A DNA stretch of 64,000 nucleotides, taken from the NCBI GenBank assembly GCA_963664245.1, contig OY760934.1:232242-296241 (forward strand), written 5' to 3'. The position numbers and the translations under genes are program-made. Below the pieces are notes generated by a model. That model was not told the DNA's origin. It was given only the letters and a program-made list of their open reading frames with translations, and ran no database searches. This stretch comes from Bacteroidales bacterium (GTDB taxonomy: Bacteria; Bacteroidota; Bacteroidia; Bacteroidales; GCA-2711565). Shown piece by piece: positions 5,807 through 57,398 of this stretch; position 1 is the stretch's first letter, and each line of letters begins with the position of its first letter.

Positions 5807-8800
5807 ATGAACACATTCAAATACATCCTCCGAAGCTTGGCGTTTTACAGCAAAAACCACCTTACGGTTTTTTTGGGAACCATGCTCAGCACGGCTATTT
5901 TAACCGGGGCTTTGATTATCGGCGATTCGGTGCGGGGGAGCCTGGGAGATTTGCTTGAGAAACGTCTGGGAAAAGTTGAGTTTGCACTGGATGCCGGAGA
6001 TCGTTTTGTGACGGACGGCTTAAATAAAACTATTTCGGGGAAAATAAATTCCCGTACGGCGGCTGTTTTAAAACTGAATGGAATTGCTGTCAATCCAGCC
6101 ACATCCAACCGGATTAACCAGGCGCAGGTGCTGGGCGTGGATGAAAACTTTTGGGGGCTTGCCGGATTAAAAAATATTGATTTAAAAAAAGACCAGGTTA
6201 TTATCAGTGATAATCTGGCTCATCGCCTGGAATTGGGTGTCGGTGACGAACTCCTCCTGCGTGTGGAGAAAAAGGGCTTTGTGCCTTCCAATGCTCCTTT
6301 TGTTCAGGATGAAGAAACTTCGGCGGCTCTTCGGTTGGAGATTGTCGGGATTGCGGATAAAAATAAATTCGGGCGGTTTAGTTTGCAAAGCAACCAGGTG
6401 GCTCCTTACAATGTGTTTGTGTCAAAAGATTTTTTGGCCGAAGAAATTGAAATGTCCGGCTTCTCAAATTTGGTATTGCTGGAAAACCCGGGAACGGAAA
6501 CTTCGGATCTCTTGCGCTCAAGCTGGACCGCTTCCGATGCCGGGATCATCCTCGAAAAACTAAAAAATACCAATCAAATCGAACTTCGCTCCAGACGGAT
6601 TTTTCTTGAGGAAAATATCAGCGAAGTTATTCTTAACGACTTCCCCGGAAATGAAATTCTGACTTATCTGGTCAACACTATTAAGTCGGAAAAGGGCGAA
6701 ACGCCTTACTCATTTGCTTCGGGAATGTCGACTTTTGATTATTTAAAGCCGGATGAAGTTGTGATTAATCAATGGCTGGCCGATGATTTAAAGGTTCGGA
6801 AAGGCGATAGTTTGCAGGTTGATTTTTATGTGATCGGTTCCATGCGTAAGTTGGTAGAAGAACGGACATCTTTTGTGGTTAAAGAAATTATCCCCACCGG
6901 GCAAGCCGGACTGGACAACTCATTGATGCCGCCTTTTCCGGGCATTGCCACTTCTCAAAGCTGCAACGACTGGGAAACCGGCGTGCCGGTCGATCTGGAG
7001 CGCATCCGCGATAAAGACGAAGCTTACTGGAATCGCTACAAAGGAACGCCCAAGCTTTACCTGTCATATAAAACCGCTGTAACTTTATGGGCGAACCGTT
7101 TTGGTAAGCATACGGCCATTCGTTTTGATGTGGATAAAGTGAGCATTGATGAGCTTAATGAAACGATCAGCGCCAAGCTTGACCCCAAAGATTTGGGCTT
7201 GCAATTCAGGAACGTACGCAAAGAAGGCGATCATGCTGTAGCCAATGCCATCGGATTTGATGAGTTGTTTTTGAGCCTGAGCTTTTTCGTGATCGTTGCC
7301 AGTATTTTACTAACGAGCCTGCTGTATGCCCTGAATATTGAGAGTCGCAGGGATCAGTCGGGGGTGATGGCGGCTCTGGGGTTCACCAAACGGAAAATCA
7401 AACGCCTTCATTTATACGAATCTTCGCTGATTGCCATTGTTGGCGGTGTGTTCGGAGCCTTGCTCGGGATTCTTTACAACGAACTCATCATGCGCGCCAT
7501 AAATTCCATCTGGAACGACATTGTACGAACCAACGAGCTGGATATTATCATTCTTCCGCGAACGCTTTTTATCGGAGCCATGAGCGGGATCATCATCGCC
7601 CTGATTATTATTTACTGGGTGAACACCAGCAAATTGCGGGCTCCCGTTATCCAGTTAATCAAAAAGGTAAATACGGTCAGCATTGAAAGGCCGCAATATT
7701 ATTGCTGGTCGTGGTTGGTGGCTTTGTTGGCTTTTTGTGCTGTGATCGTGATTTTTCTTAGCGGTTCTTTGGCCGATCCGAGCTCGCTCATGATTGCCAG
7801 TGCCTTGTTTCTGGTGAGCTGTTTTTCTATGGTGAAATTCTACATGAACAAGGTTAAACACCGGAAAGCGGTTCCTGATTTCAACGTGATTTCATTAATC
7901 AAACGAAATATAAGCCTGAACCAAACACGTAGCTTATCGGTGATTATTTTGCTGGCTTTGGGAACTTTTACCATTTTGATTACCGGCGGCAACCGTAAAA
8001 CATTTTACGGGCAAACCAACAATGCCCAATCCGGTACTGGGGGCTACTTGTTTTGGGCTGAAACCAGCCTGCCCGTATTAAACGATTTGAACGCTTCGGG
8101 CGATTTTGACGGCCTGGATTTTGTGCAATTTCATCAGCTGAGCGGCGATGATGCCAGTTGTTTGAACCTGAACCAGGTGACCAAGCCCCGGATTTTAGGT
8201 GTTGATCCCACGGCTTTTGATCAGAAGCAAGCCTTTGCTTTCCAGAAATTAGATGCTTCGGTTGATGCGGAGCACCCATGGAAATCCCTTGAACAGGAAC
8301 TGGGTGAAAATGTTATTCCGGCCTATGCTGATCAAACCGTAATTGTTTGGGGACTGATGATGAACGTAGGGGATACGCTCTACTACAATAGCGAAGATGG
8401 CGAGCGTATTGCCATGGTTTTGAAAGCCGGTTTGAAACCGAGTATTTTCCAGGGGAACCTGCTGATTGCAGATAAATTTTTTACCAAATATTTCCCGTCG
8501 GTGAGTGGTTCAAAAATGATGCTTGTGGATGGTTCTGTTGAAAAAGAAGCGGATGTGAGGGATGAACTGCTGGCTAATTTTATGGATCATGGCATTGAAA
8601 TCCAGCGCACGGATGAACGCCTGGCCGAGTTTAATTCGGTGACCAATACTTATTTAACGGTGTTTATGATTCTCGGCGGATTGGGCGTGTTGATCGGTAC
8701 GATTGGCTTGGGTGTGATTTTAATCCGGAACCTGCTGGACCGCAAACATGAAATCGCTTTGCTACAAGCCATTGGTTTTAGCAAATCCAAGATACTCGGC

Positions 8801-9028: not shown

Positions 9029-9108
9029 TGATCTAAGTGTTTATTTTTGATAAAAGTCCGGACGGAGTTTTTAATTCATTAAGAAGCTGCAAATTTTTCC
9101 ATTTAATA

Positions 9109-9131
9109 GAGCGGAAAATTATTTTCCGCTC
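9109..9131 (+). terminator. Perfect 10-bp hairpin downstream of the permease gene
   Basis: GAGCGGAAAA-tta-TTTTCCGCTC. No clear U-tract, so terminator function is uncertain. Confidence 0.4.
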
Positions 9132-9134
9132 AGC

Positions 9135-9298
9135 GGGGTGCAAAAATATTTTGGTCAGCTTTAGCTGAATGTGATCCAACGTTTTATGGTATGGTGTCGT
9201 GGGGGATTATGGGGCGAAAACGTATCCGTTTACACTGACTTTTTTTTACGAGCCACAAACGCTTAAAAACCGCTGAAACCCGCATGCACTATACCATT
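9135..9298. repeat. Conserved 3' cassette-flank element, copy A (split by the IS; continues at 10999-11010)
   Basis: Shares ordered blocks with 21164-21324. These include GTCAGCTTTAGCTGAATGTGATCCAACG (9154-9181), which is 27/28 identical to 21175-21202. Confidence 0.6.
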
Positions 9299-10998
9299 TG
9301 TGTCTGTTGCACAAAGGCATTAAAATAAATAAATTGCAATTTGGTTAATACTTTTTTTCATCCCTAATAATTCAGGTTTTGATTACTTTATGCATTTAAT
9401 TTCAATAAAAAAGGCTTGAATAGCATTATATGAAGCGAAAAAACCAGCAATTTGCTCATATATATAGGCCATTTGAGCCTTTACCTTGGTCTCGTACTTA
9501 TTGACATTATATTTTAGTAATTTCTTCAAGTTATAAGCACAGGCAGCCATGTGAACCACTTTATTGGCTTGGGCAATACCCAAAGTATTGATTTTTCGTA
9601 ATCCCAGGTATTGAGTAAGGTTTCCCCAAGCTGGTTCTACTGTTGATTGCCGTTTACCCTTCATTTTTCTGCCCCATTTACTATTTACCCTCTCATTATT
9701 CCGTATGTATTCATCCAAATAGGCTGTTATTGCGATCTTTTTTTCATGAGACTTTCCGATACATACACTTCTGCTGGGGCAATCTTTACAATCGCTTCGC
9801 CGGGTATAGTAATGGTTTTGTAAAGAGTCATTGCTATGCTTTTGCTTTTTAAATATTACCCTTTTGCCTTGTGGGCATAACCAATAGTTTTGTTCCTTTA
9901 TAAAAGTAAAACCCTCTGGGCCACCTTTAAACGTTCCATGTTTTGGAATGTAACTAAGTATATGTTCTTGTTCCAGAAACTGATAATTATCTCCGCTACT
10001 ATAACCAGCATCAGCTAGAATATTAGTCCATAACAGCCCTAATCTCCATAAACGCTTATGGGTTCTCTTAACGATATCTTGTAAGTTCTTGCTGTCCACT
10101 CTATCGGCATGATAAGCCTGTACATCACTTATTACATTGAAGGCCGTATCTACGGTAATGTTCCCGTGATAGTTTAGCTTACGGGATTTTCCCGGCTTTA
10201 CACTAATGCGAGCATCAGGATCGGTAGGACTATAATGGGTTTTGTTACTGGTGTATTTAGAACGCTTAGAATTAGCCCCTTGCCGCGTGTTTTGGGTTGT
10301 TTTCCATTTTTTCTGCCGTGCTGCTATTTCATTAAGTTCATCTTTATTTGCAGAAACCTGTCTTTGTGCCAGGTTTGCTTTATTCTTTTTTGCTTTTCGT
10401 ATTGGTTGTTGGTCTCCATTGGAGATAGCCCTTATTCTGGTTAAATATTCTTCCAGCTCTTCTTCTGGTACTTTTAGCTCTAAGCTATCCATACTTGCAT
10501 TGGCTTTAATAGGAGCAGAATCGGTTGCTTGGGTATGCCCACTCACAAGCCCACTATCAACACATAAAGCAAATATCTTTGTAAAAACAGTTTCAAAGAC
10601 ACCCTCTGGAAATAACTGGCGAGTACGGCTAACAGTACTATGCCACGGTAAGGGTTCATCTATATTATATCCAAGAAAATACAAAATATCTAAACGCATG
10701 GAGCAATGTGCTATCAACTTACGATCACTTACAATATTTTCTAAATAGCCAACAATGCATAATTTAAAAAAGACACGCGGGTCTATACTTTTTTGTCCAC
10801 AACCACCATAATATGGCGCAGTTTGTTTGAGGAGAAAATCCAAATTCAGGATCGACTTTAACCTACGGTAAAAGTTCTGCTCTGGCACAACCTGGCTTAG
10901 TTGGAAACTGACAAATAGTTTTTCTTGGTATTCTTTATTCCCTTGCATGACGTAAGTTAATAATATTTTGCCTATTTCTTTGTTGTGCAACAGTTACA
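9299..10998 (-). mobile_element. IS1182-like insertion sequence (~1.7 kb)
   Basis: Terminal inverted repeats TGTGTCTGTTGCACAA (9299-9314) and TTGTGCAACAGTTACA (10983-10998), with an 11-nt perfect core CTGTTGCACAA. Single transposase ORF. TGTGT occurs at 9299-9303 and 10999-11003, which is either a 5-bp target duplication or part of the IR. Confidence 0.75.
9383..10948 (-). CDS. IS1182/IS5-type DDE transposase
   Basis: N-terminal MQGNKEYQEKLFVSFQLSQVVPEQNFYRRLK ... DPRVFFKLCIVGYLENI, typical of IS1182-group transposases. DDE region around ADAGYSSGDNY. The ATG at 10948 is preferred over the TTG at 10990 in the ORF track. Confidence 0.85.
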   Translation of the reverse strand: MQGNKEYQEKLFVSFQLSQVVPEQNFYRRLKSILNLDFLLKQTAPYYGGCGQKSIDPRVFFKLCIVGYLENIVSDRKLIAHCSMRLDILYFLGYNIDEPLPWHSTVSRTRQLFPEGVFETVFTKIFALCVDSGLVSGHTQATDSAPIKANASMDSLELKVPEEELEEYLTRIRAISNGDQQPIRKAKKNKANLAQRQVSANKDELNEIAARQKKWKTTQNTRQGANSKRSKYTSNKTHYSPTDPDARISVKPGKSRKLNYHGNITVDTAFNVISDVQAYHADRVDSKNLQDIVKRTHKRLWRLGLLWTNILADAGYSSGDNYQFLEQEHILSYIPKHGTFKGGPEGFTFIKEQNYWLCPQGKRVIFKKQKHSNDSLQNHYYTRRSDCKDCPSRSVCIGKSHEKKIAITAYLDEYIRNNERVNSKWGRKMKGKRQSTVEPAWGNLTQYLGLRKINTLGIAQANKVVHMAACAYNLKKLLKYNVNKYETKVKAQMAYIYEQIAGFFASYNAIQAFFIEIKCIK

Positions 10999-11001
10999 TG
11001 T

Positions 11002-11016
11002 GTTGGCTGCTGGGTT
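11002..11016. repeat. Cassette-1 inverted repeat, 3' arm
   Basis: GTTGGCTGCTGGGTT ends 1 nt before the stop codon (11017-11019). Its partner is the rc of 12373-12387, GTTGGCTGCAAGTTT (12/15 identical, first 9 perfect). Confidence 0.55.
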
Positions 11017-12345
11017 TTATAGTAATTGTTTTAATTCTTCCCTTATCACCGAAGGTTTTTCTGCTGTCGCATCGATAATAAATCCTTTATCATCAATCAA
11101 AATATATCTCGGAAAAGCTTTTGCATTATAATCATCATTAAATTTATGTGTTGCCCCTTCAGTACAAAGATTAATGGTATTTAATTCAAATTCTTTTATT
11201 TTACTTAACCATTTTTCTTTGTCATTATCAGCTGATATCGATACAAAAATGATATTTTCATTCTTCAATTCATCAGAAAGCTTTTTCATTTCGGGCATCT
11301 CTCTTATGCAAGGTCCACAAAATGAGCTCCAACAATCTATGTATACAAATTTACCCAGAAAGTCCGAAAGCTTAACAATATTTCCGTTGTTATCTATTAT
11401 CTCAAATTCAGGAGCCTTTTTTCCTGTTGCAAGCTTGCTCCAATTATTATATTTCCCTGTCAGGTAATCTTTTTGTCCTTTGTCTTTCATAATTGCCAGA
11501 AAGTCATCGCATATACTATCAATTCCATCAATACCATTAAGATTTATTTGACTATTAATCTCTCTGAGCATTATATCTTCGAATATTTCTCTTTCAGTAA
11601 ATATTTCCTTTGCAAGAGTGTATTTGTCATTTAATTCTTTTGCCCTGAAATCTAAATAAGATATTAAAGTTGACTTGTAATCATTGAATTTGAAGAGTTC
11701 TTTATTGTTAGTTTCTATCTGGTCAGTGAATTTGTAATAATTATCAGGAAGTTCAGGTTTAATTTTAGTGAGCATCTCATAAAAACCTGGATACCCAAAT
11801 TGTTGGTTAATCCAAAAGTAATTGATAAGCAGATTTTCTGTGTTGTAGAAAGAATTAGATATTTTGGGATTCAATTTTTGGTAATCATTCAAATGTTTTA
11901 TTCTAATCTGCTTAACACTATCTATTTTTTCTATAAATTTTTCAGGCTCAGAAGAAAACAGAGCAATATCAATTTTTCTTGGGTCGTCAAATCCTAAATC
12001 CATTATTAAGTTCATTTTCTTATATAAAAACTCACTTTCTTCAAAACCAAGCCCGGAAAATTGAATTTGTTTAGACCTTTCATAATCTATAAAAATGCTA
12101 TCACCAAATTCTACAAAAAGAGGAATCCACTCATCTAATTTCAAGTCAATGTAATTTTCTGCTCTAATATTAAAACTAAATCTACCATTAACAATAGTAT
12201 CCATGTAAGTTGAATCAGCTGTTTTTACTTCTGCAATTGCTACTTCAGAATTCCTCAAAAAACCAACAATCTTGATTGTGCGATTGTCTTTATTACTGCA
12301 TCCCAAAATCAAGATACATAAGCTTAAAATCAATAATTTTCTCAT
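11017..12345 (-). CDS. Thioredoxin-fold (TlpA/ResA-like) lipoprotein
   Basis: Lipoprotein signal MRKLLILSLCILILGCS. C-terminal thioredoxin fold with CxxC motif WSSFCGPC. AT-rich. Confidence 0.75.
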   Translation of the reverse strand: MRKLLILSLCILILGCSNKDNRTIKIVGFLRNSEVAIAEVKTADSTYMDTIVNGRFSFNIRAENYIDLKLDEWIPLFVEFGDSIFIDYERSKQIQFSGLGFEESEFLYKKMNLIMDLGFDDPRKIDIALFSSEPEKFIEKIDSVKQIRIKHLNDYQKLNPKISNSFYNTENLLINYFWINQQFGYPGFYEMLTKIKPELPDNYYKFTDQIETNNKELFKFNDYKSTLISYLDFRAKELNDKYTLAKEIFTEREIFEDIMLREINSQINLNGIDGIDSICDDFLAIMKDKGQKDYLTGKYNNWSKLATGKKAPEFEIIDNNGNIVKLSDFLGKFVYIDCWSSFCGPCIREMPEMKKLSDELKNENIIFVSISADNDKEKWLSKIKEFELNTINLCTEGATHKFNDDYNAKAFPRYILIDDKGFIIDATAEKPSVIREELKQLL

Positions 12346-12372
12346 AATTATATTTTTTGTAGGATGTTTCTT

Positions 12373-12387
12373 AAACTTGCAGCCAAC
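12373..12387. repeat. Cassette-1 inverted repeat, 5' arm
   Basis: aaacttgcagccaac is the rc of GTTGGCTGCAAGTTT. Lies 28 nt upstream of the ATG at 12345. Confidence 0.55.
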
Positions 12388-12520
12388 TTATATATAAACC
12401 AGTGTGTGTTATTTTACTTATATATTTCAATAATTCTCCTGGTGAATTAATCAAAAATTATCAACCCAAATGCTGGGGAGAAGCATTTTCCACAAAATCA
12501 AATATAAGAAATTTTATTAA
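12383..12520 (-). promoter_or_regulatory. Promoter + 5' leader module L1
   Basis: On the minus strand there is a -7 box TATATTTG (12499-12506). Next comes the hairpin AAATGCT-TCTCCCC-AGCATTT (12468-12488). The proximal 49 nt (12383-12431) are about 41/49 identical to 22171-22220. Confidence 0.55.
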
Positions 12521-12529
12521 ACCAAGTCC

Positions 12530-18638: not shown

Positions 18639-19211
18639 TTACCCCTGAACCTCTCCATTAACCGAATGGATAATTACTTTCCCGAAACCTTGTCCGTAAT
18701 CATTTTTGAAATCGTAAAAGGCCCCAATGACCAGTAGCTCATTTTTTTTGATTTTTTCGCTGTACTTTTCCAGGGCAATTTTTACCTGGTAGTTGATGTT
18801 GTTGTTGATGCAGGTGTTAAGTTCATCGGTAGGGGTGAGGGCCGGAAGAAGTTGGTCGAGCCGGGCTTTGATAGAATCCGGTTCTTTGTTGTAGCCAGCC
18901 CTGAAAGTTTTTATTGCCCCGCAATCGCTATGCCCAAGGATGAGCAGTATCGGGGTTTTGAGGTACAGCACGCCGTAATCGACCGAGGCTTCGTTAGAGA
19001 ATATTTGGTTCCCAATATTGCGAACCGTAAATATTTTGTTAAACGAATTGCCCAGTAAAGCTTCACTTTGAACGCGCGAATCGGAACAGGAAACCAAGGT
19101 GATGAGCGGTTTTTGGCCATGCTGCATCTCTGCCTGGAAATCTTTGCCGGTACGGTTCATAAAGGCATGGTTATTATCTTGAATAAGTTCAAGGATATTT
19201 TGGTGTCTCAT
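18639..19211 (-). CDS. Beta-class carbonic anhydrase
   Basis: Zinc-ligand motifs CSDSRV and GHSDCGA. Confidence 0.8.
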   Translation of the reverse strand: MRHQNILELIQDNNHAFMNRTGKDFQAEMQHGQKPLITLVSCSDSRVQSEALLGNSFNKIFTVRNIGNQIFSNEASVDYGVLYLKTPILLILGHSDCGAIKTFRAGYNKEPDSIKARLDQLLPALTPTDELNTCINNNINYQVKIALEKYSEKIKKNELLVIGAFYDFKNDYGQGFGKVIIHSVNGEVQG

Positions 19212-19358
19212 GGTTAGTAAGAATTAATACGCTCAAATATAAGGAATTCTGGGAGAATGAAATGCGTAATTATTCTAAAAAATTGGTGTAAAAAATTCCT
19301 CTAACATTTGATGTTCTTTTCAGTAGAAGCTTTGCAGGATTTCTTAGTTGCGTCTATA

Positions 19359-21029
19359 CTACGAACGTTTAATCGTTGTGTTTGGTTCTGTGTGTTCTAT
19401 TATTTCGCATGCTTTTTTTGTTGCAATCTTAAAGTTATCGAAGATTAAATCAACGGGAATTAATTTGTTTAAATGATATTTTATTAATTCTTCTTTAATC
19501 TCAGAGTTCACGCCTGATAATAAAATCGTTATGTTTTTATTTCGTAATATTTTTACGGCATCCTTTAAATTATGCAATCCGGTTTGATCAATAAATGAAA
19601 CATGCCGCATCCGTATAATCAAGACTTTGCATGTTAATCCGATTTCCTCAATTGCTTCGGAATACCTTCTGGCGGAAGCGAAGAATAAGGGGCCGCTAAT
19701 CTCATAAATTTTGACCATATCTGGTAGGTCGGAATAATTTTCTATCAGGTCGTTATCTACAATACAATCAATTCTTTTCTCGCTAATATCAGACATTCTT
19801 TTCATGAAGAGTACTGCTGATAAGAGTACGCCGATTTCGATGGCTAAGGTTAAATCAAAGAACACTGTTATAAAAAATGTTGTGAGCAAAATAAGTACGT
19901 CAAAGTACGAACCTTTCAGAATAGACACGAAAGACCGCCACCCACTCATATTATAAGCGACAATGATTAAAATTCCGGCCAGGCAAGACATGGGGATCAG
20001 TTTTGCCCAGCGTCCGAGAAACAGCATTATCAGGAGCAATGTGATTGCGTGTACCATGCCCGATATTGGAGTCCTTCCCCCGTTTTTAACATTTGTTGCT
20101 GTACGTGCAATTGCGCCTGTAGCAGGAATTCCTCCAAAAAAAGGAGTGATAATATTTGCAATTCCCTGTGCAATCAGCTCTGTATTTGAACGATGTTTCC
20201 CGCTAATCATCCCGTCGGCTACAACTGCAGAAAGTAAAGATTCAATTCCTCCCAGCAAAGCAATGGTAATTGCCGGTGCAAAATAGTTTTGTAATTCATT
20301 AAGTTTTACGCTAGGGAAAACAAAACTAAAATTATTGGGGATCGAACCAAAGAATGTTTCGACCGTCGCAACATCAAGTTTGAAAATATAAACCACCAGT
20401 GTTATCGCCACAATAGCTAAAAAAGAGCCCGGGATTTTAGACGTGATCTTTTTTGAAAAAACGGTGATTAAAATGGTAACCATGGTTATGGCAAAAGCGA
20501 TCCAGTTTATGTGATTGATATTTGAAAAATAAATCATCCATTTCTCATAAAATCCGGAAGGGATTTTGCTTATGGGTAAGCCCAAAGCATCTTTTATTTG
20601 TGTTGAAAAAATTACGAGGGCAATACCACTTGTGAAACCAACGACCAATGAATGGGGAAAAAACTTTAATAATGTTCCCAGTTTGAATAATCCAAAAACA
20701 ATTAGTATAAGGCCGGCAAGTATGGTTGAAATTATTAGTCCGTCAATGCCATAGTGTTCAACAATACCATATACAATTACAATAAAGGCACCTGTTGGCC
20801 CTCCAATTTGTACACGGCTCCCTCCCAAAAACGAAATCAAAAAGCCTGCAACTATTGCGGTTATCAATCCTTTTTCGGGCGATACCCCTGATGCAACTGC
20901 AAACGCAATTGCCAATGGCAAAGCTACAATTCCGACAACAATACCTGATAAAACGTCATTTGTTACCTGCTTTTTATCCAAGCCTGTTTTGAGAAGGCTG
21001 AAAAATTTTGGCCTGAAAATACTATTCAT
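19359..21029 (-). CDS. SulP-family anion transporter with C-terminal STAS domain
   Basis: 556 aa with a typical SulP N-terminus (LSGIVVGIVALPLAIAFA) and a C-terminal STAS-like domain. Confidence 0.9.
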   Translation of the reverse strand: MNSIFRPKFFSLLKTGLDKKQVTNDVLSGIVVGIVALPLAIAFAVASGVSPEKGLITAIVAGFLISFLGGSRVQIGGPTGAFIVIVYGIVEHYGIDGLIISTILAGLILIVFGLFKLGTLLKFFPHSLVVGFTSGIALVIFSTQIKDALGLPISKIPSGFYEKWMIYFSNINHINWIAFAITMVTILITVFSKKITSKIPGSFLAIVAITLVVYIFKLDVATVETFFGSIPNNFSFVFPSVKLNELQNYFAPAITIALLGGIESLLSAVVADGMISGKHRSNTELIAQGIANIITPFFGGIPATGAIARTATNVKNGGRTPISGMVHAITLLLIMLFLGRWAKLIPMSCLAGILIIVAYNMSGWRSFVSILKGSYFDVLILLTTFFITVFFDLTLAIEIGVLLSAVLFMKRMSDISEKRIDCIVDNDLIENYSDLPDMVKIYEISGPLFFASARRYSEAIEEIGLTCKVLIIRMRHVSFIDQTGLHNLKDAVKILRNKNITILLSGVNSEIKEELIKYHLNKLIPVDLIFDNFKIATKKACEIIEHTEPNTTIKRS

Positions 21030-21050
21030 TGTTCAGTAATAAAAAAGTGC

Positions 21051-21058
21051 AAATGTAA
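21051..21058 (-). promoter_or_regulatory. Candidate -7 promoter box for the sulP operon
   Basis: The minus strand reads TACATTTG (TAnnTTTG), 22 nt upstream of the ATG at 21029. Confidence 0.45.
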
Positions 21059-21163
21059 ATCTAAAATCCGCTCGTTATTCGCTGGAGGGTTGTTTTTTTG
21101 TTCCTAAAATCGTGTTTATTTTGGCTTCGGTCGTTTTTGGAGCGACAGGATGTTATGCAGCAA

Positions 21164-21324
21164 GGGGGCAAAAAGTCAGCTTTAGCTGAATGTGATTCAA
21201 CGGATGGCGGTATGAAATCGTTGGGGATTGCGTGCGATTTACTATCAAGGTACATGGAAAGTTGAAGCGGGCTAAAAACCTTCGCATACCATGAAACCCT
21301 TATTGGCTATATTGTGTGTTGGCA
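21164..21324. repeat. Conserved 3' cassette-flank element, copy B (intact)
   Basis: Blocks GGGGGCAAAAA, GTCAGCTTTAGCTGAATGTGATTCAACG (21175-21202), GGTATG, TCGTTGGGGATT, GCTAAAAACC, CGCATACCAT and TGTGTTGGC occur in the same order as in copy A. Confidence 0.6.
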
Positions 21325-21332
21325 TTAGTACT
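21301..21332. repeat. Cassette-2 inverted repeat, 3' arm
   Basis: TATTGGCT-N9-GTTGGCATTAGTACT, ending 3 nt before the stop codon (21336-21338). Confidence 0.6.
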
Positions 21333-21335
21333 TTT

Positions 21336-22160
21336 TTAATCAAATCTATATAAAAACGTCCGATAAACTTCCCCTTTATGGTTTAAAGTCACTTCTTTAA
21401 TCAATCTACCCAGTGAGTCATAATCGTACATTATTGTATTGTTTTTAACACTAAAAGATAAGTTTTCAGTCAAAGGGTATTCGTTACTTTCAATTGATTC
21501 TTTGATTAATCGTCCATTCTCGTTATAAACAAATTTTTTCTCCTCTTTTAGTTTACCACGAATCCGAGTAATGTTTTTTAATTTTCCTGTATCATCATAG
21601 GAGTATTTTCCAATCCAGGTAGTGTCGCCGTTTTCAATATCAAATTCTTTGTTAATCAGTTCGTCATTATATAAATAAGCTCTCCAAATCTCATACTTGT
21701 CACCTTGCATATTTGAACCTCTATCAATTAATTCTTTGAATATCTTACCGCTCTCATTATAGAATTTAATCTGTTCAAATTTAACTGTATCCAAATCGAC
21801 TGCTGTTACTAAAGTCCTGTATATTCCAATCAGGTTTTTATTGTCATTATAAATCATTAAATCTCTCCACCCAATCTCACAATTATACATACGACAGTTA
21901 TACTTTTCAATTAAATTACCTACCGAATCATAGAAATATTTTATCCTGTATTCATGACCAATCTGTTCGATAAGTTGTCCCGATATATTAAAGAATTTAT
22001 AATTAATAGCATTTTCAGGAGTCATGTTGCTACCAGAATACTTTATTTCTCTTATATCGTAATCTATTTGTTCACTAAAATCTGGAACATACAGAACTTG
22101 TCTCGAACAACTAAATTGTATCAGAATCAAGATTGCTAATATTCTTTGCAGTGTGCTCAT
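21336..22160 (-). CDS. Lipoprotein with short YD/RHS-like repeats
   Basis: Signal MSTLQRILAILILIQFSCS from the ATG at 22160; the track start at 22190 is a TTG. Repeats YDSVGNLIEKY, YDDTGKLKNI, YNENGRLIKES, YDSLGRLIKEV. AT-rich. Confidence 0.55.
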   Translation of the reverse strand: MSTLQRILAILILIQFSCSRQVLYVPDFSEQIDYDIREIKYSGSNMTPENAINYKFFNISGQLIEQIGHEYRIKYFYDSVGNLIEKYNCRMYNCEIGWRDLMIYNDNKNLIGIYRTLVTAVDLDTVKFEQIKFYNESGKIFKELIDRGSNMQGDKYEIWRAYLYNDELINKEFDIENGDTTWIGKYSYDDTGKLKNITRIRGKLKEEKKFVYNENGRLIKESIESNEYPLTENLSFSVKNNTIMYDYDSLGRLIKEVTLNHKGEVYRTFLYRFD

Positions 22161-22192
22161 AGTATTAATACCAACGTATGTACAAACCAATA
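22161..22192. repeat. Cassette-2 inverted repeat, 5' arm
   Basis: The rc reads TATTGGTT-N9-GTTGGTATTAATACT and directly abuts the ATG. The inner 15-mer is 13/15 identical and the outer 8-mer 7/8 identical to the 3' arm. Confidence 0.6.
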
Positions 22193-22310
22193 TGTGTTAT
22201 TTTTCTTATGTCTTTTCAATATCATTATTTATTCCGCAGCTTTGTACGAGAACAAGTCTTAATGCCGGGGGAGAAGCATTATTTCAAATATAAAAAATAA
22301 ACCATTATGA
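22171..22310 (-). promoter_or_regulatory. Promoter + 5' leader module L2
   Basis: On the minus strand there is a -7 box TATATTTG (22285-22292). The hairpin is AATGC-TTCTCCCCCG-GCATT (22261-22280). The proximal 50 nt are homologous to L1. Confidence 0.55.
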
Positions 22311-22332
22311 ATTTAATATCCATAGTTGGTTT
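22299..22332 (-). terminator. Candidate intrinsic terminator of the upstream three-gene operon
   Basis: The minus strand reads AAACCAACTATG-gatattaaatt-CATAATGGTTT followed by ATTTTTT. The stem is 6+4 bp with a small internal loop. The first arm overlaps the stop codon. Confidence 0.45.
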
Positions 22333-23173
22333 ATTTTTCCTCCATATTTATTAATTTAAAAACTAATGTTTCGTTTTCATAATTACGGTATTCCATTTTA
22401 ACAAAACCGTATTCTTTATTGAAAAACATCGTTAGCTTTGAGTTTCCTAAAGAACATGTAGAAACACTTTTAATAATCCAACAGTCAATTTTTAAATTTC
22501 CTAGCAGGTAAGTTGTCTGACCGGATACTTTGTATTTGTATTTTATCGTTTCTCCATCCCATTCTCCCCAGCCGTCATTAATATTTAACGAACCGTCCCA
22601 TTTTTTACCTTTTTTTATGGGGAAAGAAACTTTCGGGAAAGGAGCGACCTCTGTAAATTTGTATTGGTTGTTCCGGATGGGGTGCATCCATACCTGTTCC
22701 ACATTCTCAATAACACCTTCCCCTGTTTTTTCTTCCCATAATTGAAGTTCTTTATTTATTTTGTGATTTCTTAATTTTATAGAATCGGCTTTATAATCTG
22801 GGAATTCATAATAGATTAAATCTTGTTTCTCCGGTTGCCATTCCCACCTTTTTCCGGTTGTTTTCATATATACAAAGCCATTGGACAGCGTATCTTTATT
22901 TGAAGCCAAATAAATTGCTTTGTAGCGATAAGTTTTCCCCTTTTTAAAGATTGTTCTTACTTTAGGAATTCTTCGTTCCGTAAATTCTAAACTGTCAAAA
23001 TTAGTGTTAGAATCAATGCCATTCTCCGGAATTTTGTACCTTCTTTCAATGTCATACAAGGTATCCGTTTTGGTATTTATAGTTTCAATGGTGGTGGAGT
23101 TTTGAGTGTAGGCATTACTTTGAATACCAATTAGTGCAATTATGGTGATAATAAAAATCTGTTTGTATTTCAT
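22331..23173 (-). CDS. Hypothetical secreted protein
   Basis: Signal peptide MKYKQIFIITIIALIGIQSNAYTQ from the ATG at 23173. An alternative ATG at 23206 directly abuts the upstream stop. No motif recognised. Confidence 0.5.
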   Translation of the reverse strand: MKYKQIFIITIIALIGIQSNAYTQNSTTIETINTKTDTLYDIERRYKIPENGIDSNTNFDSLEFTERRIPKVRTIFKKGKTYRYKAIYLASNKDTLSNGFVYMKTTGKRWEWQPEKQDLIYYEFPDYKADSIKLRNHKINKELQLWEEKTGEGVIENVEQVWMHPIRNNQYKFTEVAPFPKVSFPIKKGKKWDGSLNINDGWGEWDGETIKYKYKVSGQTTYLLGNLKIDCWIIKSVSTCSLGNSKLTMFFNKEYGFVKMEYRNYENETLVFKLINMEEK

Positions 23174-27023: not shown

Positions 27024-27068
27024 ACCTATTAAAAATTAAAACCATTGTTCATAATATAATTATCCCTA

Positions 27069-27110
27069 ATGCCGGGGAGAAGCATCAAGTCAAATATATA
27101 AAATAAATCA
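27069..27110 (-). promoter_or_regulatory. Promoter + leader hairpin module L3
   Basis: On the minus strand there is a -7 box TATATTTG (27091-27098) followed by ATGC-TTCTCCCCG-GCAT (27069-27085). This is the same core as in L1 and L2. Confidence 0.5.
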
Positions 27111-27157
27111 ATGTATAATAGGTTTTAAAAGAGGAATTAGATTCTTTCTGTAAACAA

Positions 27158-27187
27158 AAAAGCTGTCTTCTTTCGAAAACAGCTTTT
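27158..27187 (-). terminator. Intrinsic terminator behind the displaced rho fragment
   Basis: AAAAGCTGT ... ACAGCTTTT forms a 9-bp stem. On the minus strand it is followed by a T-run. Confidence 0.6.
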
Positions 27188-27210
27188 ATATCTAAAGAAT
27201 AATTTTGTGT

Positions 27211-27595
27211 CTATCCATTCATCGAAATCAAAAATTCCTCGTTAGTTTGAGTGAACATGATCTTGTCTTTCAGGAACTCCATGGCTTCCAGCGGGTTCAT
27301 GTCGGCCAGATGGTTTCGTAGTACCCAAATGCGTTGCAGCGATTCTTTATCAAGCAGCAAATCTTCGCGGCGTGTACTTGATGCCACCAAATCGATAGCC
27401 GGGTAAACGCGTTTGTTCGATAATTTGCGATCCAACTGAAGCTCCATGTTGCCGGTACCTTTAAATTCTTCGAAGATTACTTCATCCATTTTAGAGCCGG
27501 TGTCGATCAGGACCGTAGCGATGATGGTTAATGAACCACCGTTTTCAATTTTACGGGCTGCACCAAAGAAACGTTTTGGTTTTTGAAGGGCGTTG
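27211..27595 (-). pseudogene. rho: Truncated duplicate of the rho 3' end (last ~128 codons)
   Basis: Co-linear with 29230-29614 at a constant offset of 2,019 nt. The 92-aa ORF differs from Rho at one residue. It has no 5' part. Confidence 0.85.
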
Positions 27596-27842
27596 CTAAA
27601 AAGTATTGGGAATCAAGATTTAATGCTTGTAACATCTGATAAGAACGGAAGATACATACAATAATTATGACAAAAGAATAACTAATGTTGGCTAAATAGA
27701 CGAAACGAGAGTAAATTAAAGTAGAATATTCTGTTTCAAATTTCTACAATTTAATAACTTTGAAGCCAGCAACCGCCTACTTTACATATGTTTTGGGATG
27801 GCCGTTTTGCAGCGAAGTATTAATAAATTAAAATATGATGTT

Positions 27843-29174: not shown

Positions 29175-29208
29175 AAAAAGGCTGGAACCTACGGGTAACA
29201 GCCTTTTT
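29175..29208. terminator. Bidirectional terminator between the PDZ gene and rho
   Basis: AAAAAGGCTG ... CAGCCTTTTT forms a 10-bp stem flanked by an A-run and a T-run. Confidence 0.6.
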
Positions 29209-29229
29209 TAATATATTAATTTTTAATGG

Positions 29230-30801
29230 TTATCCATTCATCGAGATTAAAAATTCCTCGTTGGTTTGAGTGAACCTGATTTTGTCTTTCAGGAATTCCA
29301 TGGCTTCCAGCGGGTTCATGTCGGCCAAGTGGTTCCGCAGTACCCAAATACGTTGCAGCGATTCTTTATCAAGCAGCAAATCTTCGCGGCGTGTACTTGA
29401 TGCCACCAAATCGATAGCCGGGTAAACACGTTTGTTCGATAATTTGCGATCCAACTGAAGCTCCATATTGCCTGTACCTTTAAATTCTTCGAAGATTACT
29501 TCATCCATTTTAGAACCGGTGTCGATCAGGGCAGTAGCGATAATGGTCAATGAACCGCCGTTTTCGATTTTACGGGCTGCGCCAAAGAAACGTTTTGGTT
29601 TTTGAAGGGCATTGGCTTCCACCCCACCGGATAATACTTTGCCCGATGCCGGAGAAACAGTGTTGTAAGCCCTTGCCAAACGGGTGATAGAGTCGAGCAG
29701 GATAACTACGTCGTGGCCGCACTCGGTCATGCGTTTTGCTTTTTCCAGCACAATGTTTGCAATTTTTACGTGGCGTTCTGCCGGTTCATCAAAAGTAGAT
29801 GAAATGACTTCGGCTTTTACGCTACGTTCCATGTCTGTTACCTCTTCCGGGCGTTCATCAATTAACAAAATAATTAAATAGGCTTCGGGATGGTTGGCAG
29901 CAATGGCGTTGGCAACTTCTTTTAAAAGAACCGTTTTACCGGTTTTTGGTTGAGCCACAATCAACCCACGTTGTCCTTTTCCAATAGGCGTAAACAAGTC
30001 GATTACACGGGTTGAAATGGTTTCTTGTGGATGTCCGGTTAACGAAAGTTTTTCGTCCGGGAACAGGGGCGTTAAGAAATCGAAAGGAATACGGTCGCGT
30101 ACTTCTTCCGGCCTGCGCCCGTTGATTAACTCAACTTTAATTAACGGAAAATATTTTTCGGTTTCTTTTGGTGGACGAATGGTCCCTCTCACGGTATCAC
30201 CGGTTTTTAATCCGAATAATTTAATTTGTGATTGAGAAACGTAAATGTCGTCGGGAGAGTTCAGGTAATTGTAATCTGATGAACGAAGGAAACCATAGCC
30301 ATCCTGCATGATTTCAAGAACGCCCTCGCTAGACACAATGCCTTCTAGCTCTGAAAGAAAATCATCGCGTTTAACTTCGTATTCTGATTTCGGGTTGTCC
30401 TGTTTTGGAGTCTCTTTTTTCTCAGGAATTTCAATATTTTCGTTACGTTCTATCCTGCTTTTTTTAGGTTTGACTTCTTGCTCAGTATCAGGATTGGTTG
30501 AAAAAACAGGTTCGTCAATAGAAGGTTCTTCTGGTTCTTTCTTTTTGATCGGTTCCACTTTTTCGGGCTCACGCGGAATACGTGCACGCCTTCCCCGGCT
30601 TGGTTTTTTAATTTCTTTTTTCCCTTTTTCTTTTTCTTCTTTTTCTAGCTCTTCATTGGTAGGATTTAACGCCTGATGATCTAAAATTTTGTAGATAAGA
30701 TCTTGCTTTAATAATTTATCAACTTTAGGAATGTTAAGGCTTTTAGCTATCTCACGCAGTTCCGAAACCAATTTGCCATTAAGTTCAATAATGTCGTACA
30801 T
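29230..30801 (-). CDS. rho: Transcription termination factor Rho (with K/E/P-rich N-terminal insertion)
   Basis: N-terminus [25 protein letters not shown], Walker [13 protein letters not shown], conserved C-terminal ATPase region. 523 aa. Confidence 0.95.
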
Positions 30802-54982: not shown

Positions 54983-56176
54983 TTAATTTTCTATTTTCTG
55001 AATCACATCATAAATGGCTTTTACGTTATTTTCCCAGGTATGTTCCCGTGCAAATTGTATTCTTTTTTCTTCCAGTTCTGGGGTATTCTCGTTTAATGCT
55101 TTTTCGATGTTTAAAACATATTCTTCTTTGCTGGAAGCCAGGTAAACATGGTCCTTAAAAACCTGCATGGTTTCGGTTGAAGTTGCTACCGTGGACTTGC
55201 CCATGGCCAGGTATTCGTCAATTTTCCGCGGGTAGTTTCCAATGGTCAGCGGGTTTAAATCCTGCGGGTTCAGGGCTACATCAAAGGCTTTTAAGTAGGA
55301 GGGGAGTTGCTCCATTGGTTTTGAACCTAAAAAATACACGTTTTTAATTTGGTGGAGATTACTGTTTTGAAATTTTTCATCCTCGGGACCAACCAAAACA
55401 ACACTCCATTCGGGTTTGCTTGTCGCGATGTGTCCGATCACTTCGATATCCAGCCTTGAACTCTTTAAAGCCCCAATATAGCCAATAACAGGCTGCTTTA
55501 TTGGTTCTATATCGCTGGGGAGTTCTTTAATCAAATCGTTATTAAACAAAGAAACATCGCAGCCCTGGCCAACATAAAACGAATTAGGATTCATGTTACG
55601 GGCAATGTTTTGCAGGTAAACCGAATTGGCAACCACCAAATCTGATTTTTTCATGACTGCATCCTCGTAAAAAATACCATGGTGCTTGAAAAAATCAGTA
55701 GCCCGCATATTATCGCGGGTGTAATAAACCAGCGTTTTAGGTTTTAAAATCTCTTTAAACAGAAAAGCCCGGTAAAAATCGCTGTCGTTAAAAATGATAA
55801 AATCCTTGAAGCCAAGTTCATCAATGGCCTTCTGAACCTGTTTGGCATAGCGTTTTGAATTTATATTGTTGAAGGAATTAAAAAGCCTGCGGTGCCCGAT
55901 TTTGCTGATCGATTCAAGAATGGTTTTGGGGTTCAGGTTCCATAAATTATCATTGATTTGCTCAATAGCCGGAAGTTGGTTCTTTAATATTTTTTTCCGC
56001 TTGTTAACCAGGGGATCATTTTTTTTACGAAGCAAGGTAAGCCGATCCATGGGGTAATTTACATACAGCACCCGGTTGTGTTTGGCGAATTCATAAGCAA
56101 TATTCACACAATTGCTGCCAATTGTCGAATCGAGGCTTTGCAGGCCATGAACGATAATGTCCCTGTTTTTAATCAT
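54983..56176 (-). CDS. Glycosyltransferase (GT-B, GT4-like), paralog 1
   Basis: Clearly homologous along its whole length to 56169-57398 (MIKNRDIIVHGLQ vs MVENRDIIAFGLQ; IDEYLAMGK in both). The ATG at 56176 was chosen by alignment to the paralog. Confidence 0.75.
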   Translation of the reverse strand: MIKNRDIIVHGLQSLDSTIGSNCVNIAYEFAKHNRVLYVNYPMDRLTLLRKKNDPLVNKRKKILKNQLPAIEQINDNLWNLNPKTILESISKIGHRRLFNSFNNINSKRYAKQVQKAIDELGFKDFIIFNDSDFYRAFLFKEILKPKTLVYYTRDNMRATDFFKHHGIFYEDAVMKKSDLVVANSVYLQNIARNMNPNSFYVGQGCDVSLFNNDLIKELPSDIEPIKQPVIGYIGALKSSRLDIEVIGHIATSKPEWSVVLVGPEDEKFQNSNLHQIKNVYFLGSKPMEQLPSYLKAFDVALNPQDLNPLTIGNYPRKIDEYLAMGKSTVATSTETMQVFKDHVYLASSKEEYVLNIEKALNENTPELEEKRIQFAREHTWENNVKAIYDVIQKIEN

Positions 56177-57398
56177 TTTCAGATTGTTTTTGTTCTTCCT
56201 CAACTTCTAAAATATGATCGTAAATTTTTTGCACAAAATTCTCCCAAGTATGCTCCGAAGCATAAGTGATCCTCTCTTTTTCCAGTTCAGGACTGTTTTC
56301 TTTCAGGGCTTTGTCAATTTCGGTAATGTATTCTTCTTTGGTTGACGGGAGATAGGTGTGATCCTTGAAATAAGCCATGAAGGTTGTTTTGGTTGCTACC
56401 GTGGGCTTGCCCATGGCCAGGTATTCGTCAATTTTCAACGGATAATTAACATCGGTAATTTTATTGACCTTTTGCGGGTTCAAAGCCACATCAAAACCTT
56501 TAATATAGGAAGCCAATTCTTCGGGGTCTTTTCGGCCCAGGAAATAAACATTGCTAAGCTGGTGAAGCTTGCTATTTTTGAAATCTTCATCTTCGGGGCC
56601 AACCAAAACCAAATCGTATTCCGGGCGTTGTTCGGCAATGTGTACAAGCACTTCAATATCCAGACGAATAGTGGTCAGATAACCAACGTAGCCAATAATT
56701 GGCTTTTTATTTTTACGGATTTCCTGTAAATCGGTAGGAATTTCAAGTTTGCCGTCTTTATCGTTATATCTGGTCAAATCACAGCCCTGGCCAATCATGT
56801 ACGAACGTGGGTTGGTTTCGCGGCAATAATCGGCAAAATAATCCGAATTGGCAACAGCAAAGTCAGCCTGTGCAACAATTTGCGGTTGCAAACGGGTACC
56901 GTGCCGCTTGTGGTAATTAACCAGGATTACTGCATCGCGTAACAGGTAGATAAACATCTTAGGTTTTAATAATTTTTTCAGGTAATAGCCTGTAATCATT
57001 GAATTATCATTAAATAAAATAAAGTCCTTAAAGTTTAGCTTTTGAGCGGCTTTCTTGATCTGCTTTGCAAAACGTTTGTCGTTAATCTTGTTAAAATAGT
57101 CGAAAATGCCCGGCGACTTAATCCAGTTGATTGATTCGATAACGGTTCTAGGATAAAGCACCCAAAGGTTATCGTTGTACTGAACCAGGTCGGGTTCTTT
57201 GCCTTTAATAATATTTATTCTTTTTTGAACCTCGGGACGGTTCTTTCCTTTAATTAGTTCGCTGCGTTTTAAGGGCGGGTTTACAAATAAAACCCTGTTT
57301 TTACGTGCCATTTCAAGCACGGTATATTTGTTTGTGAAAGCTATTTTCAGATCCCAGGGTTGTAGTCCAAAGGCAATAATATCTCTGTTTTCTACCAT
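56169..57398 (-). CDS. Glycosyltransferase (GT-B, GT4-like), paralog 2
   Basis: Tandem paralog of 54983-56176. The ATG at 57398 avoids overlap with the upstream gene. Confidence 0.75.
   Translation of the reverse strand: MVENRDIIAFGLQPWDLKIAFTNKYTVLEMARKNRVLFVNPPLKRSELIKGKNRPEVQKRINIIKGKEPDLVQYNDNLWVLYPRTVIESINWIKSPGIFDYFNKINDKRFAKQIKKAAQKLNFKDFILFNDNSMITGYYLKKLLKPKMFIYLLRDAVILVNYHKRHGTRLQPQIVAQADFAVANSDYFADYCRETNPRSYMIGQGCDLTRYNDKDGKLEIPTDLQEIRKNKKPIIGYVGYLTTIRLDIEVLVHIAEQRPEYDLVLVGPEDEDFKNSKLHQLSNVYFLGRKDPEELASYIKGFDVALNPQKVNKITDVNYPLKIDEYLAMGKPTVATKTTFMAYFKDHTYLPSTKEEYITEIDKALKENSPELEKERITYASEHTWENFVQKIYDHILEVEEEQKQSEND

Follow-up and report, generated by a model that had tools for sequence, protein, structure and literature searches.

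How does a gene come to be bracketed, from its start codon to just past its stop codon, by an inverted repeat, and why does the DNA outside that repeat recur around an unrelated gene? These questions are posed by positions 21164-22334 of a 64,000-nucleotide (nt) stretch of DNA from a Bacteroidales bacterium (contig OY760934.1, positions 232,242 to 296,241; below, the window), in which a probable lipoprotein gene lies on the minus strand, as do all the elements of the two loci described here. A first reading made from the letters alone (the sequence-only reading) had taken conserved flanks, exchangeable cargo and inverted repeats specific to that cargo as the marks of a site-specific recombination cassette, and had named an integron-like cassette among the forms it might take. 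Both proposals are borne out by the comparisons below: a near-identical genome carries different cargo at the same place, the starts of 29 cassettes complement the cassettes' own far ends, and the site behind the gene belongs to a family found in recombinase-linked arrays. We conclude that 21164-22334 is very probably an integron-type gene cassette, in which a lipoprotein open reading frame (ORF) and an attC-like site of about 138 nt sit at an attI-like platform, behind a putative host promoter and ahead of a terminator-like hairpin.

The cargo is a 274-aa ORF (21336..22160; ATG at 22160, stop codon 21336-21338) whose predicted product has a signal peptide followed by a cysteine, and YD/RHS-like repeats, and is a probable lipoprotein; an exact look-up found this sequence not on record. 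The 5' arm GTTGGTATTAATACT (22161..22175, or 22175-22161 along the gene strand) abuts the ATG and is the R' side that the cassette carries. The 3' arm AGTACTAATGCCAAC (21318..21332), which is the inverse core (R'') region, lies 3 nt past the stop codon. On re-reading, the forward-strand letters of 21318-21332 are GTTGGCATTAGTACT and the reverse complement of 22161-22175 is GTTGGTATTAATACT; they are identical at 13 of 15 positions, just as first described, so that the arms around the ORF are complementary at those 13. The further claim that the repeat resumes after a spacer is right as to the existence of TATTGGCT and TATTGGTT, which amount to a weak 7/8 match and are given little weight here.

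When 15-mer inverted repeats were sought up to 40 nt outside the start and stop of each of the 53 ORFs in the window, the lipoprotein ORF was the sole case at 13/15, the runner-up having 12/15 and the mode being 10. Because it stands only one step above the next ORF, the repeat by itself is only moderately unusual, and the weight of the argument comes from sequence comparisons. That single step is also the point in favor of a very different account, in which the repeat is either the terminal inverted repeat (TIR) of a transposon or of a passenger element resembling a miniature inverted-repeat transposable element, or else a chance repeat beside ordinary paralogous intergenic DNA.

The comparisons begin with the flanks, which the sequence-only reading had already found to be shared with a second locus in the window. 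On the 5' side, 22171-22215 and 12383-12427 are 82% identical over 45 nt (D9), and on the 3' side, 21175-21229 and 9154-9208 are 82% identical over 55 nt (D6). Aligned more widely (21030-21340 and 9030-9390), the 3' regions have a mean column identity of 71%, and both score 84-86 bits with the site model described below. As had been noticed, homology between the loci ends at GTTGG upstream and at CCAAC downstream. The gene between these limits at the second locus, ORF 11017-12345, is indeed unrelated: the thioredoxin-fold lipoprotein of the first description is a Redoxin/AhpC-TSA protein with a signal peptide and a cysteine. The 3' match had appeared split (9135-9298 plus 10999-11010), and this is accounted for by an IS1182-family insertion at 9304..10998 (Pfam DDE_Tnp_1_6 and DUF772; NCBIfam IS1182, 327 bits), with a transposase at 9383-10990, terminal inverted repeats CTGTTGCACAA / TTGTGCAACAG and a possible flanking 4-bp duplication, ACAC. 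The 3' element there is in two pieces because the IS1182 element inserted within it.

At the second locus the platform recurs with a different cassette, which carries a TlpA-like gene and whose site was later split by IS1182. We call the two units cassette A (9180..12386) and cassette B (the lipoprotein unit). Cassette A has a 5' arm GTTGGCTGCAAG at 12376-12387, an R'' CCCAGCAGCCAAC at 11002-11014, and an attC-like site divided between 10999-11014 and 9173-9303; its 5' arm agrees with the reverse complement of R'' (GTTGGCTGCTGG) at 10 of 12 positions. As a separate observation, the ends of the IS1182 element, CTGTTGCACAA and TTGTGCAACAG, resemble the GTTGCAC / GTGCAAC boxes of some sites, either by chance or through a site preference of the element.

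What, then, is the element shared behind the two unrelated genes? An exact 20-mer common to both window 3' copies, scanned against one genome per species, had several matches each in Hanstruepera marina and H. flava, and others in a Marinilabiliales genome and in three contigs binned as Virgibacillus. Two further matches lay in coding-looking sequence with no surrounding similarity and were treated as chance, and viral contigs gave no matches to the 20-mer. On the gene strand every real copy has one layout: a stop codon, an A-run, a variable element of about 140 nt running from ...CAAC to GTTG..., then GTTGAATCACAT and a small hairpin. In an alignment of 11 sites the closing stem has 17 pairs, 10 of them with compensatory changes. 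A covariance model (R1) retrieved 50 sites from 17 sources (E <= 1e-6), and in the alignment of these 50 (A5) there are 118 double-changed cells as against 30.5 in shuffles, with double changes at 11 of the 17 pairs. The share of paired cells is 94.9%, compared with 77% in shuffles and about 30% with slid partners, a percentage inflated in favor of our interpretation by the fitting of A5 to R1. Of the rows with letters at the terminal AAC/GTT pairs, 45-47 show standard pairing, and a conserved A-rich bulge is present in the sites. Each of these units is thus an ORF followed by an imperfect palindromic site with a conserved terminal AAC...GTT, and structure is kept while sequence varies, as is the case for attC.

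Even with filters off, the model finds exactly two sites in the window, at 21194-21331 and at the IS-split 9173-9312. The attC-like site of cassette B (21194..21332, about 138 nt, CAAC...GTTG) scores 85.7 bits, a value qualified by the presence of this site in the R1 training set; at site A the model took an IS1182 end as a substitute inverse core. Known RNA families do not provide another identity for these elements: in the window no Rfam match reached the gathering score, permissive thresholds gave only chance-level matches around both loci and the ORF-less unit described below, and no tRNA genes were found. The 5'-truncated look of the window copies had brought TnpB/IscB guide RNAs, retron RNA and group II intron remnants into consideration, and these candidates were dropped; ORF lists, and Pfam searches of some neighboring ORFs, revealed nothing beyond small genes arrayed on one strand and tyrosine recombinases.

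The inverted repeat itself finds an explanation in the way integron cassettes are cut. Crossover at G|TT in those systems leaves the rest of R' with the cassette, and in the circular form this segment pairs with the cassette's own R''. If crossover here likewise occurred at G|TT, the bases past the junction would travel with the cassette and hence should complement its own inverse core (...CCAAC), and in the excised circle these travelling bases would close the stem of the site. In a pilot study of ten sites, the 18 nt ending in the inverse core were used to search upstream for their reverse complement: the best match began with GTT in nine, and in eight of these it lay directly past the 3' end of the previous site. 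The systematic test used 29 cassettes from loci L002-L026, each flanked by two sites. Positions 4-12 after G|TT agreed with the reverse complement of the cassette's own inverse core at 6.3 of 9 positions on average, versus 3.0 of 9 for mismatched cassette pairs, and three low scorers among the 29 have an ORF-less unit in between. Since the start arms differ from cassette to cassette (for example GTTACCACAC, GTTGTACCAC, GTTGTGCAAC and GTTGGCAAT), the complementarity is compensatory. Both window cassettes obey the rule, cassette B at 13/15 and cassette A at 10/12.

The junction rule sets the bounds of cassette B at 21201..22174. Of the upstream G|TT junction the cassette takes in the TT, and of its own R' (GTT at 21199-21201) the G; it starts as G|TTGGTATTAATACT-ATG and ends at G|TTGAATCACAT. 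The same bounds are given by the segment replaced in the near-identical genome and by homologous cassettes in three other contexts (see below). On the cassette model an empty platform would read ...GTACATACG|TTGAATCACATTCAGC..., and the junction of an excised circle would read ...CATACCGCCATCCG|TTGGTATTAATACTATG..., also as ...CATCCG|TTGGTATTAATACT.... One position departs from the rule repeatedly, with an A-vs-G mismatch at start-arm position 11 in about half of the 29 cassettes and in both window cassettes. In the window the positions concerned are 22165 with 21328 and 12377 with 11012. Such a pair is a mismatch (A-C) when read on the gene strand and a wobble (G-T) when read on the bottom strand, and it might mark strand choice.

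Does the lipoprotein gene move as the unit so defined? Homologs at 80-83% and 55% identity occur in metagenomes, and the cassette with the same boundaries is found in three other contexts (loci L023, L027 and L028). The L023 homolog starts GTTGGCATTAATACT-ATG, directly past the site of another cassette, the L027 homolog starts GTTGGCTTTAATACT-ATG, and in L028 GCTGGCATTAACACT lies a short way upstream of the ORF; the 5' arm 15-mer, with up to 3 differences, thus recurs before the homologous ORF in each. On the other side, all three have the stop codon, then AGTACTAATGCCAAC, the 3' arm being invariant, and a match to the site model. Set against L023, site B looked as if it might be a chimera of two sites. 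This was rejected, since L027 and L028 share the body of site B behind the homologous gene, so that L023 is the deviating one.

The converse comparison, of one platform with different cargo, comes from L022, part of a 3.7-Mb contig that is collinear with window positions 31117-12385 at 96-98% identity. At locus B, identity extends up to the stop codon of the upstream 291-aa gene and resumes at GTTGGATCACATTCAGC...; the intervening L022 segment comprises the platform CACACATTGGTTTATACATAC|GTT, a pair of other ORFs (of 88 and 165 aa) and a site of their own that scores 62 bits. At locus A, identity ends at window position 12385, which is the junction, and a different small ORF follows. Between very close genomes, therefore, cargo has been replaced between two predicted crossover points. 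Comparative evidence for mobility as a unit thus comes from both directions, with the same cassette in L023, L027 and L028 and other cargo at both L022 platforms.

These comparisons bear directly on two of the other forms that had been suggested for the locus. A gene flanked by inverted repeats is what a recombinase could flip as an invertible whole-gene switch. In all four contexts that carry the lipoprotein cassette (the window, L023, L027 and L028), however, the gene has one and the same orientation relative to its arms and site; no inverted form was seen in five contexts, and L022 has undergone replacement, not inversion. The cassette rule already explains the arms, and we assign the switch next to no probability. 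The transposon, passenger-element or chance-repeat account introduced above is extremely unlikely: no target-site duplication flanks the arms, neighboring cassettes in arrays abut directly, the next beginning right after the previous site, the arms accompany the homologous gene in three further contexts, and the flanks belong to the family of 50 structured sites.

Having returned to an integron-type cassette, we can ask where its relatives lie and which enzymes accompany them. Arrays of this family have a site behind every ORF, and their members are co-oriented. In the H. flava locus (L002), a tyrosine recombinase of 393 aa is followed by a conserved ORF-less unit and then by three ORF-plus-site cassettes, and in H. 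marina (L006) and contig L009 a recombinase likewise occurs together with an array. The recombinase family comprises 7105 proteins (E <= 1e-40), and the named ones among the matches listed are all from Flavobacteriaceae. Three more members, taken unseen from Winogradskyella sp. PG-2, Formosa sp. Hel1_31_208 and Algibacter mikhailovii, each have a co-oriented array behind them, in which the model has 5, 6 and 12 matches, respectively. A tyrosine recombinase thus adjoins the array in six of six loci examined (L002, L006, L009, L024, L025, L026), an association between repeat and recombinase family that the sequence-only reading had proposed as a check, and in five of them (all except L009) it is co-oriented with the array. 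In the arrays of Winogradskyella and Formosa (L024 and L025), many cassettes encode DUF6090 proteins and have near-identical start arms (GTTAGCCTTCAT / GTTGTGCTTCAT), which suggests that these cassettes were duplicated within the arrays.

The linked recombinases are not typical integron integrases. Against the integron integrase model TIGR02249 they score 198-214 bits, below the cut-off of 265, and match in two stretches. In IntI4 (PDB 2A3V), the 60 residues 186-245, a region that we take to hold the IntI-specific domain, correspond to 17 residues in the recombinase. The recombinase's closest match is XerA (PDB 5HXY, E = 2e-43), with which it aligns end to end and gap-free; two of the three recombinases examined have an extra N-terminal region of about 100 aa. 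This Xer-like character, together with a gene bracketed by inverted repeats, is what would be expected of an Xer/dif-type (pdif) module, in which a gene lies between two inverted copies of a fixed double-stranded Xer site. Here, by contrast, the arms are cassette-specific, with GTT/AAC alone invariant and no fixed 11-6-11 site; one side carries a structured site of about 140 nt with covarying stems, and the cassettes lie head to tail in co-oriented arrays. We regard a pdif module as most unlikely. For the integron-type cassette, a Xer-like tyrosine recombinase encoded outside the window would presumably excise and insert cassettes through the folded bottom strand.

Evidence on the strand comes from folding. 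In 43 of 47 sites the more stable fold is that of the bottom strand (-20.7 kcal/mol, vs -18.1 kcal/mol for the gene strand, p = 2e-8), and RNA parameters give the same preference (43-44 of 47 across both parameter sets); among modelled pairs on the gene strand, A-C mismatches number 25 and G-T mismatches 13. This bias points to selection on a single-stranded DNA fold, not on mRNA. It therefore bears on the proposal that the arms pair across one mRNA as 5' and 3' untranslated regions, burying the start codon and so controlling translation or stability. The arms can pair as sense RNA, as had been claimed: co-folding gives a 14-pair duplex of -14.4 kcal/mol, compared with -4.2 +/- 1.8 for shuffles, and -24.3 kcal/mol when extended. 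Both arms are probably transcribed, given the promoter-like box upstream and the terminator-like hairpin downstream. Yet it is the non-transcribed strand of the site that folds better, the same complementarity is found in 29 cassettes whose start arm is often well upstream of the start codon and always at the junction, and the 5'-arm changes among the four homologs are one-sided and uncompensated. A dedicated RNA device is very unlikely, and arm pairing in RNA may occur as a side effect of the cassette structure.

The segment into which the cassettes are placed can now be dissected. The last 27 nt of the 5' flank, AAATAACACAYAYTGGTTTRTAYATAM, end at the G|TT junction and occur within the window only at loci A and B; at locus B they read AAATAACACATATTGGTTTGTACATAC (22176..22202). 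A 26-nt degenerate pattern of this platform has two matches in the window, one at each locus, with 0 expected by chance. The platform is kept in L022 despite the different cargo, as an exact pattern match at locus B and with mismatches at locus A, and it resembles the short sequences between recombinase genes and first cassettes elsewhere, such as CCACATATAACnA|GTT. By these resemblances it may function as an attI-like site.

Upstream of the platform at locus B lies a promoter-leader segment (22206..22330) with a -7 box TATATTTG at 22285-22292 and a 5' hairpin AATGCTTCTCCCCCGGCATT at 22261-22280. The Bacteroidetes -7 promoter consensus is TAnnTTTG, which TATATTTG fits, and the hairpin downstream of it has the form ATGCTTCTCCCC(N)GGCAT; from the published consensus, the leader is a candidate promoter. 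At locus A the corresponding leader (12388..12529) consists of a promoter module with a hairpin at 12469-12487 and the platform AAATAACACACACTGGTTTATATATAA at 12388-12414; it fills the gap past the UDG stop codon and is conserved in L022 up to the junction. The promoter and hairpin had correctly been described as shared between the loci. The motif ATGCTTCTCCCC has three minus-strand copies in the window, at 12475, 22268 and 27074, and the third copy (TATATTTG-N5-ATGCTTCTCCCCGGCATT, 27068..27098), with neither platform nor cassette, sits upstream of an ordinary operon, that of a transglutaminase-like gene. At locus B of the 98%-identical L022 the promoter module is missing, and the gene stop GAAAAATAA runs directly into the platform; in the window the same 9-nt sequence GAAAAATAA flanks the promoter-leader as a direct repeat (22197-22205 and 22331-22339). 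The absence in L022, together with these direct repeats, shows that the module lies outside the cassette system. Two components make up the shared 5' flank, the 27-nt attI-like platform and a lineage-specific promoter module. This composite nature, the splitting of the second locus by an IS and the fit of cassette A to the junction rule had escaped the sequence-only reading.

With regard to its history, the locus-B promoter-leader is either an inserted promoter-bearing segment or one that was deleted between the 9-nt repeats in the relative. The possibility that the leaders are themselves attC-like sites (from CCAAC near 22325 to GTTGG at 22171) was rejected, since model R1, run with filters off, has no match there. 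A scan of viral and metagenome contigs with the leader motif gave only chance matches in coding DNA, and among these contigs there were no further promoter-leader copies and no empty platform.

On the other side of each cassette, the shared 3' flank combines the attC-like site with a terminator-like remnant. Both loci retain just the first 27 nt or so of an ORF-less unit, which form a terminator-like hairpin with a T-run. At locus B the remnant (TTGAATCACATTCAGCTAAAGCTGAC, then the T-run; 21164..21200) contains the hairpin at 21176-21189, a putative terminator judging from this structure, and at locus A it spans 9135..9179 (TTGGATCACATTCAGCTAAAGCTGACCAAA...TTTTTGCACCCC). Downstream of R', L022 has the same sequence as 21164-21200 save for one R' base (TTGGATCACAT in L022).

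The full ORF-less unit, of about 300 nt, behaves as a gene-free cassette, starting G|TTGAATCACAT and ending G|TTGG. Its hairpin is closed by ATGTGATTCAAC, and it has a long inverted repeat, GACAGCGTTATG...CATAACGCTGTC. Copies were located at L002 2180-2490 (-), L001 6925-7200 (-), L010 3224-3500 (+) and L012 ~5960-6320 (-); the unit varies very little, whether copies or the two Hanstruepera species are compared, and is found in mid-array as well as directly after the L002 recombinase gene. A Bacteroidetes promoter in its 3' half was considered but gained no support, no TAnnTTTG box being seen in the Hanstruepera or L012 copies. In the three contigs from a Virgibacillus sp. bin (L005, L009, L011), Bacteroidota-type sites are accompanied by the ORF-less unit and a recombinase of this kind, probably because the contigs were mis-binned, the alternative being cross-phylum transfer.

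Besides the inflated pairing percentage mentioned above, a number of observations weigh against an integron-type cassette. The window has two solitary sites and no array, and tblastn with two array-linked recombinases as queries found no recombinase in the 64 kb at E < 1e-3, as the sequence-only reading had also stated; a recombinase adjoins the array in the six other loci and not here. Single-strand folding of the window sites is poor (z = +0.6 for site B, z = 0.05 for the reconstructed site A), versus z of about -5 for two Hanstruepera sites. The L022 locus-B cassette fits the junction rule weakly, at 7/12 by reading. The core is conserved as GTT(R)/(Y)AAC only, short of the full GTTRRRY / RYYYAAC: junction 7-mers include GTTACCA, GTTGTAC, GTTGGCA and GTTAGCC, while GTTGAAT and GTTGGAT, at the ORF-less unit, do fit GTTRRRY. 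The IntI-specific additional domain around patch III, thought to be necessary for attC recombination, is lacking in the recombinases of the other genomes, and on that feature the system falls outside integrons in the strict sense. Finally, cargo replacement between close genomes could also arise by homologous recombination in the flanks after gene transfer. Site A is in addition interrupted by the IS1182 element, and the window site copies may be immobile relics that no longer move.

Within 1.6 kb of platform A, L022 has an operon (18684-20548) of a 253-aa Xer/IntI-like recombinase and an IS91-type (Y2) transposase, followed by an IS1595 transposase; the window has the TlpA-like cassette and the IS1182 element at this position instead. 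The 253-aa recombinase is 40% identical to that of L009. Elsewhere in the window, a 3'-end fragment of rho is duplicated (27156-27600 vs 29175-29614, with 87% identity across 300 nt), sits some 1.6 kb past the stop codon of intact rho (29230-30801), and is kept in L022 (1505-1888 and 3525-3908); it looks like a pseudogene fragment. Two pairs of direct repeats, about 70% identical and spaced by about 1.2 kb (55182-55414 / 56392-56624 and 59188-59357 / 60381-60550), lie inside runs of similar-sized minus-strand genes and are probably tandem paralogs.

How far does the system extend beyond this window? We tentatively suggest, at somewhat less than even confidence, that it represents a large integron-like system in Bacteroidota (Flavobacteriaceae and Marinilabiliales), undescribed in the literature searched, that consists of arrays of ORFs with hairpin sites of about 140 nt and Xer-like recombinases lacking the IntI domain. 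The window would then be a distributed form, in which stand-alone platforms (promoter, 27-nt attI-like site and terminator) far from a recombinase each hold a single cassette, which is exchanged for another between near-identical genomes. In every Flavobacteriaceae locus sampled, one site model suffices to find arrays beside recombinases, and the recombinase family has thousands of members. If the suggestion is true, integrase-based searches miss a large pool of mobile cassettes, and if Xer-like recombinases do act on hairpin sites, this bears on the origin of integrons from Xer-type recombinases. For the window itself, the cassette reading explains two variable spots, where envelope proteins (a YD-repeat lipoprotein and a TlpA-like thiol-disulfide protein) stand behind what would be a ready-made promoter.

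A description of this cassette system was not found in the literature searched, the coverage of which was incomplete. Integrons are reported to be rare in Bacteroidota (PMC9024848, PMC8618304, PMC9668308); surveys with IntegronFinder at first found only integrases without cassettes in this phylum, and later one complete integron, in Salinibacter (PMC9024848). Clusters of attC sites without an integrase (CALIN) and solitary attC sites have been proposed to be degraded integrons (IntegronFinder; PMC4889954, PMC9024848). The window cassettes resemble CALIN in that cassettes and sites lie in a chromosome with no nearby integrase. They differ in that two sites, separated by 12 kb, have one cassette and a conserved 27-nt platform each, and in the turnover of cargo between near-identical genomes.

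Among recombinases, the likeness is to XerA, XerC and XerD, with XerA the closest and no IntI insertion. Xer systems use fixed double-stranded dif-like sites, and the pdif modules of Acinetobacter plasmids are moved by Xer recombinases; the sites described here, unlike those, are long, structured and variable in sequence, and have no fixed 28-bp dif-like ends (11-6-11). Integrons in which the integrase is oriented as the cassettes are have been reported for Treponema and Chlorobi, with integrases described as bona fide IntI that possess the additional domain. Co-orientation of recombinase and array is a feature shared with those integrons, from which our recombinases differ in lacking that domain.

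Compared with integrons in general, the system differs in its linked recombinases, which have no IntI-specific domain and are co-oriented with the array in five of six loci, and in the conservation of GTTR instead of GTTRRRY; the window differs further in having no linked recombinase and in that each platform holds one cassette behind its own promoter. The likenesses to integron cassettes and attC sites are nevertheless extensive. An ORF is joined to an imperfect palindromic site whose length falls in the size range of attC (59-base element) sites, and the cassette begins with bases complementary to its own inverse core. As in attC, structure is conserved while sequence varies between invariant AAC...GTT ends, and the bottom strand folds better. 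Finally, the cassettes form co-oriented arrays beside a tyrosine recombinase, and cargo is exchanged at a fixed site.

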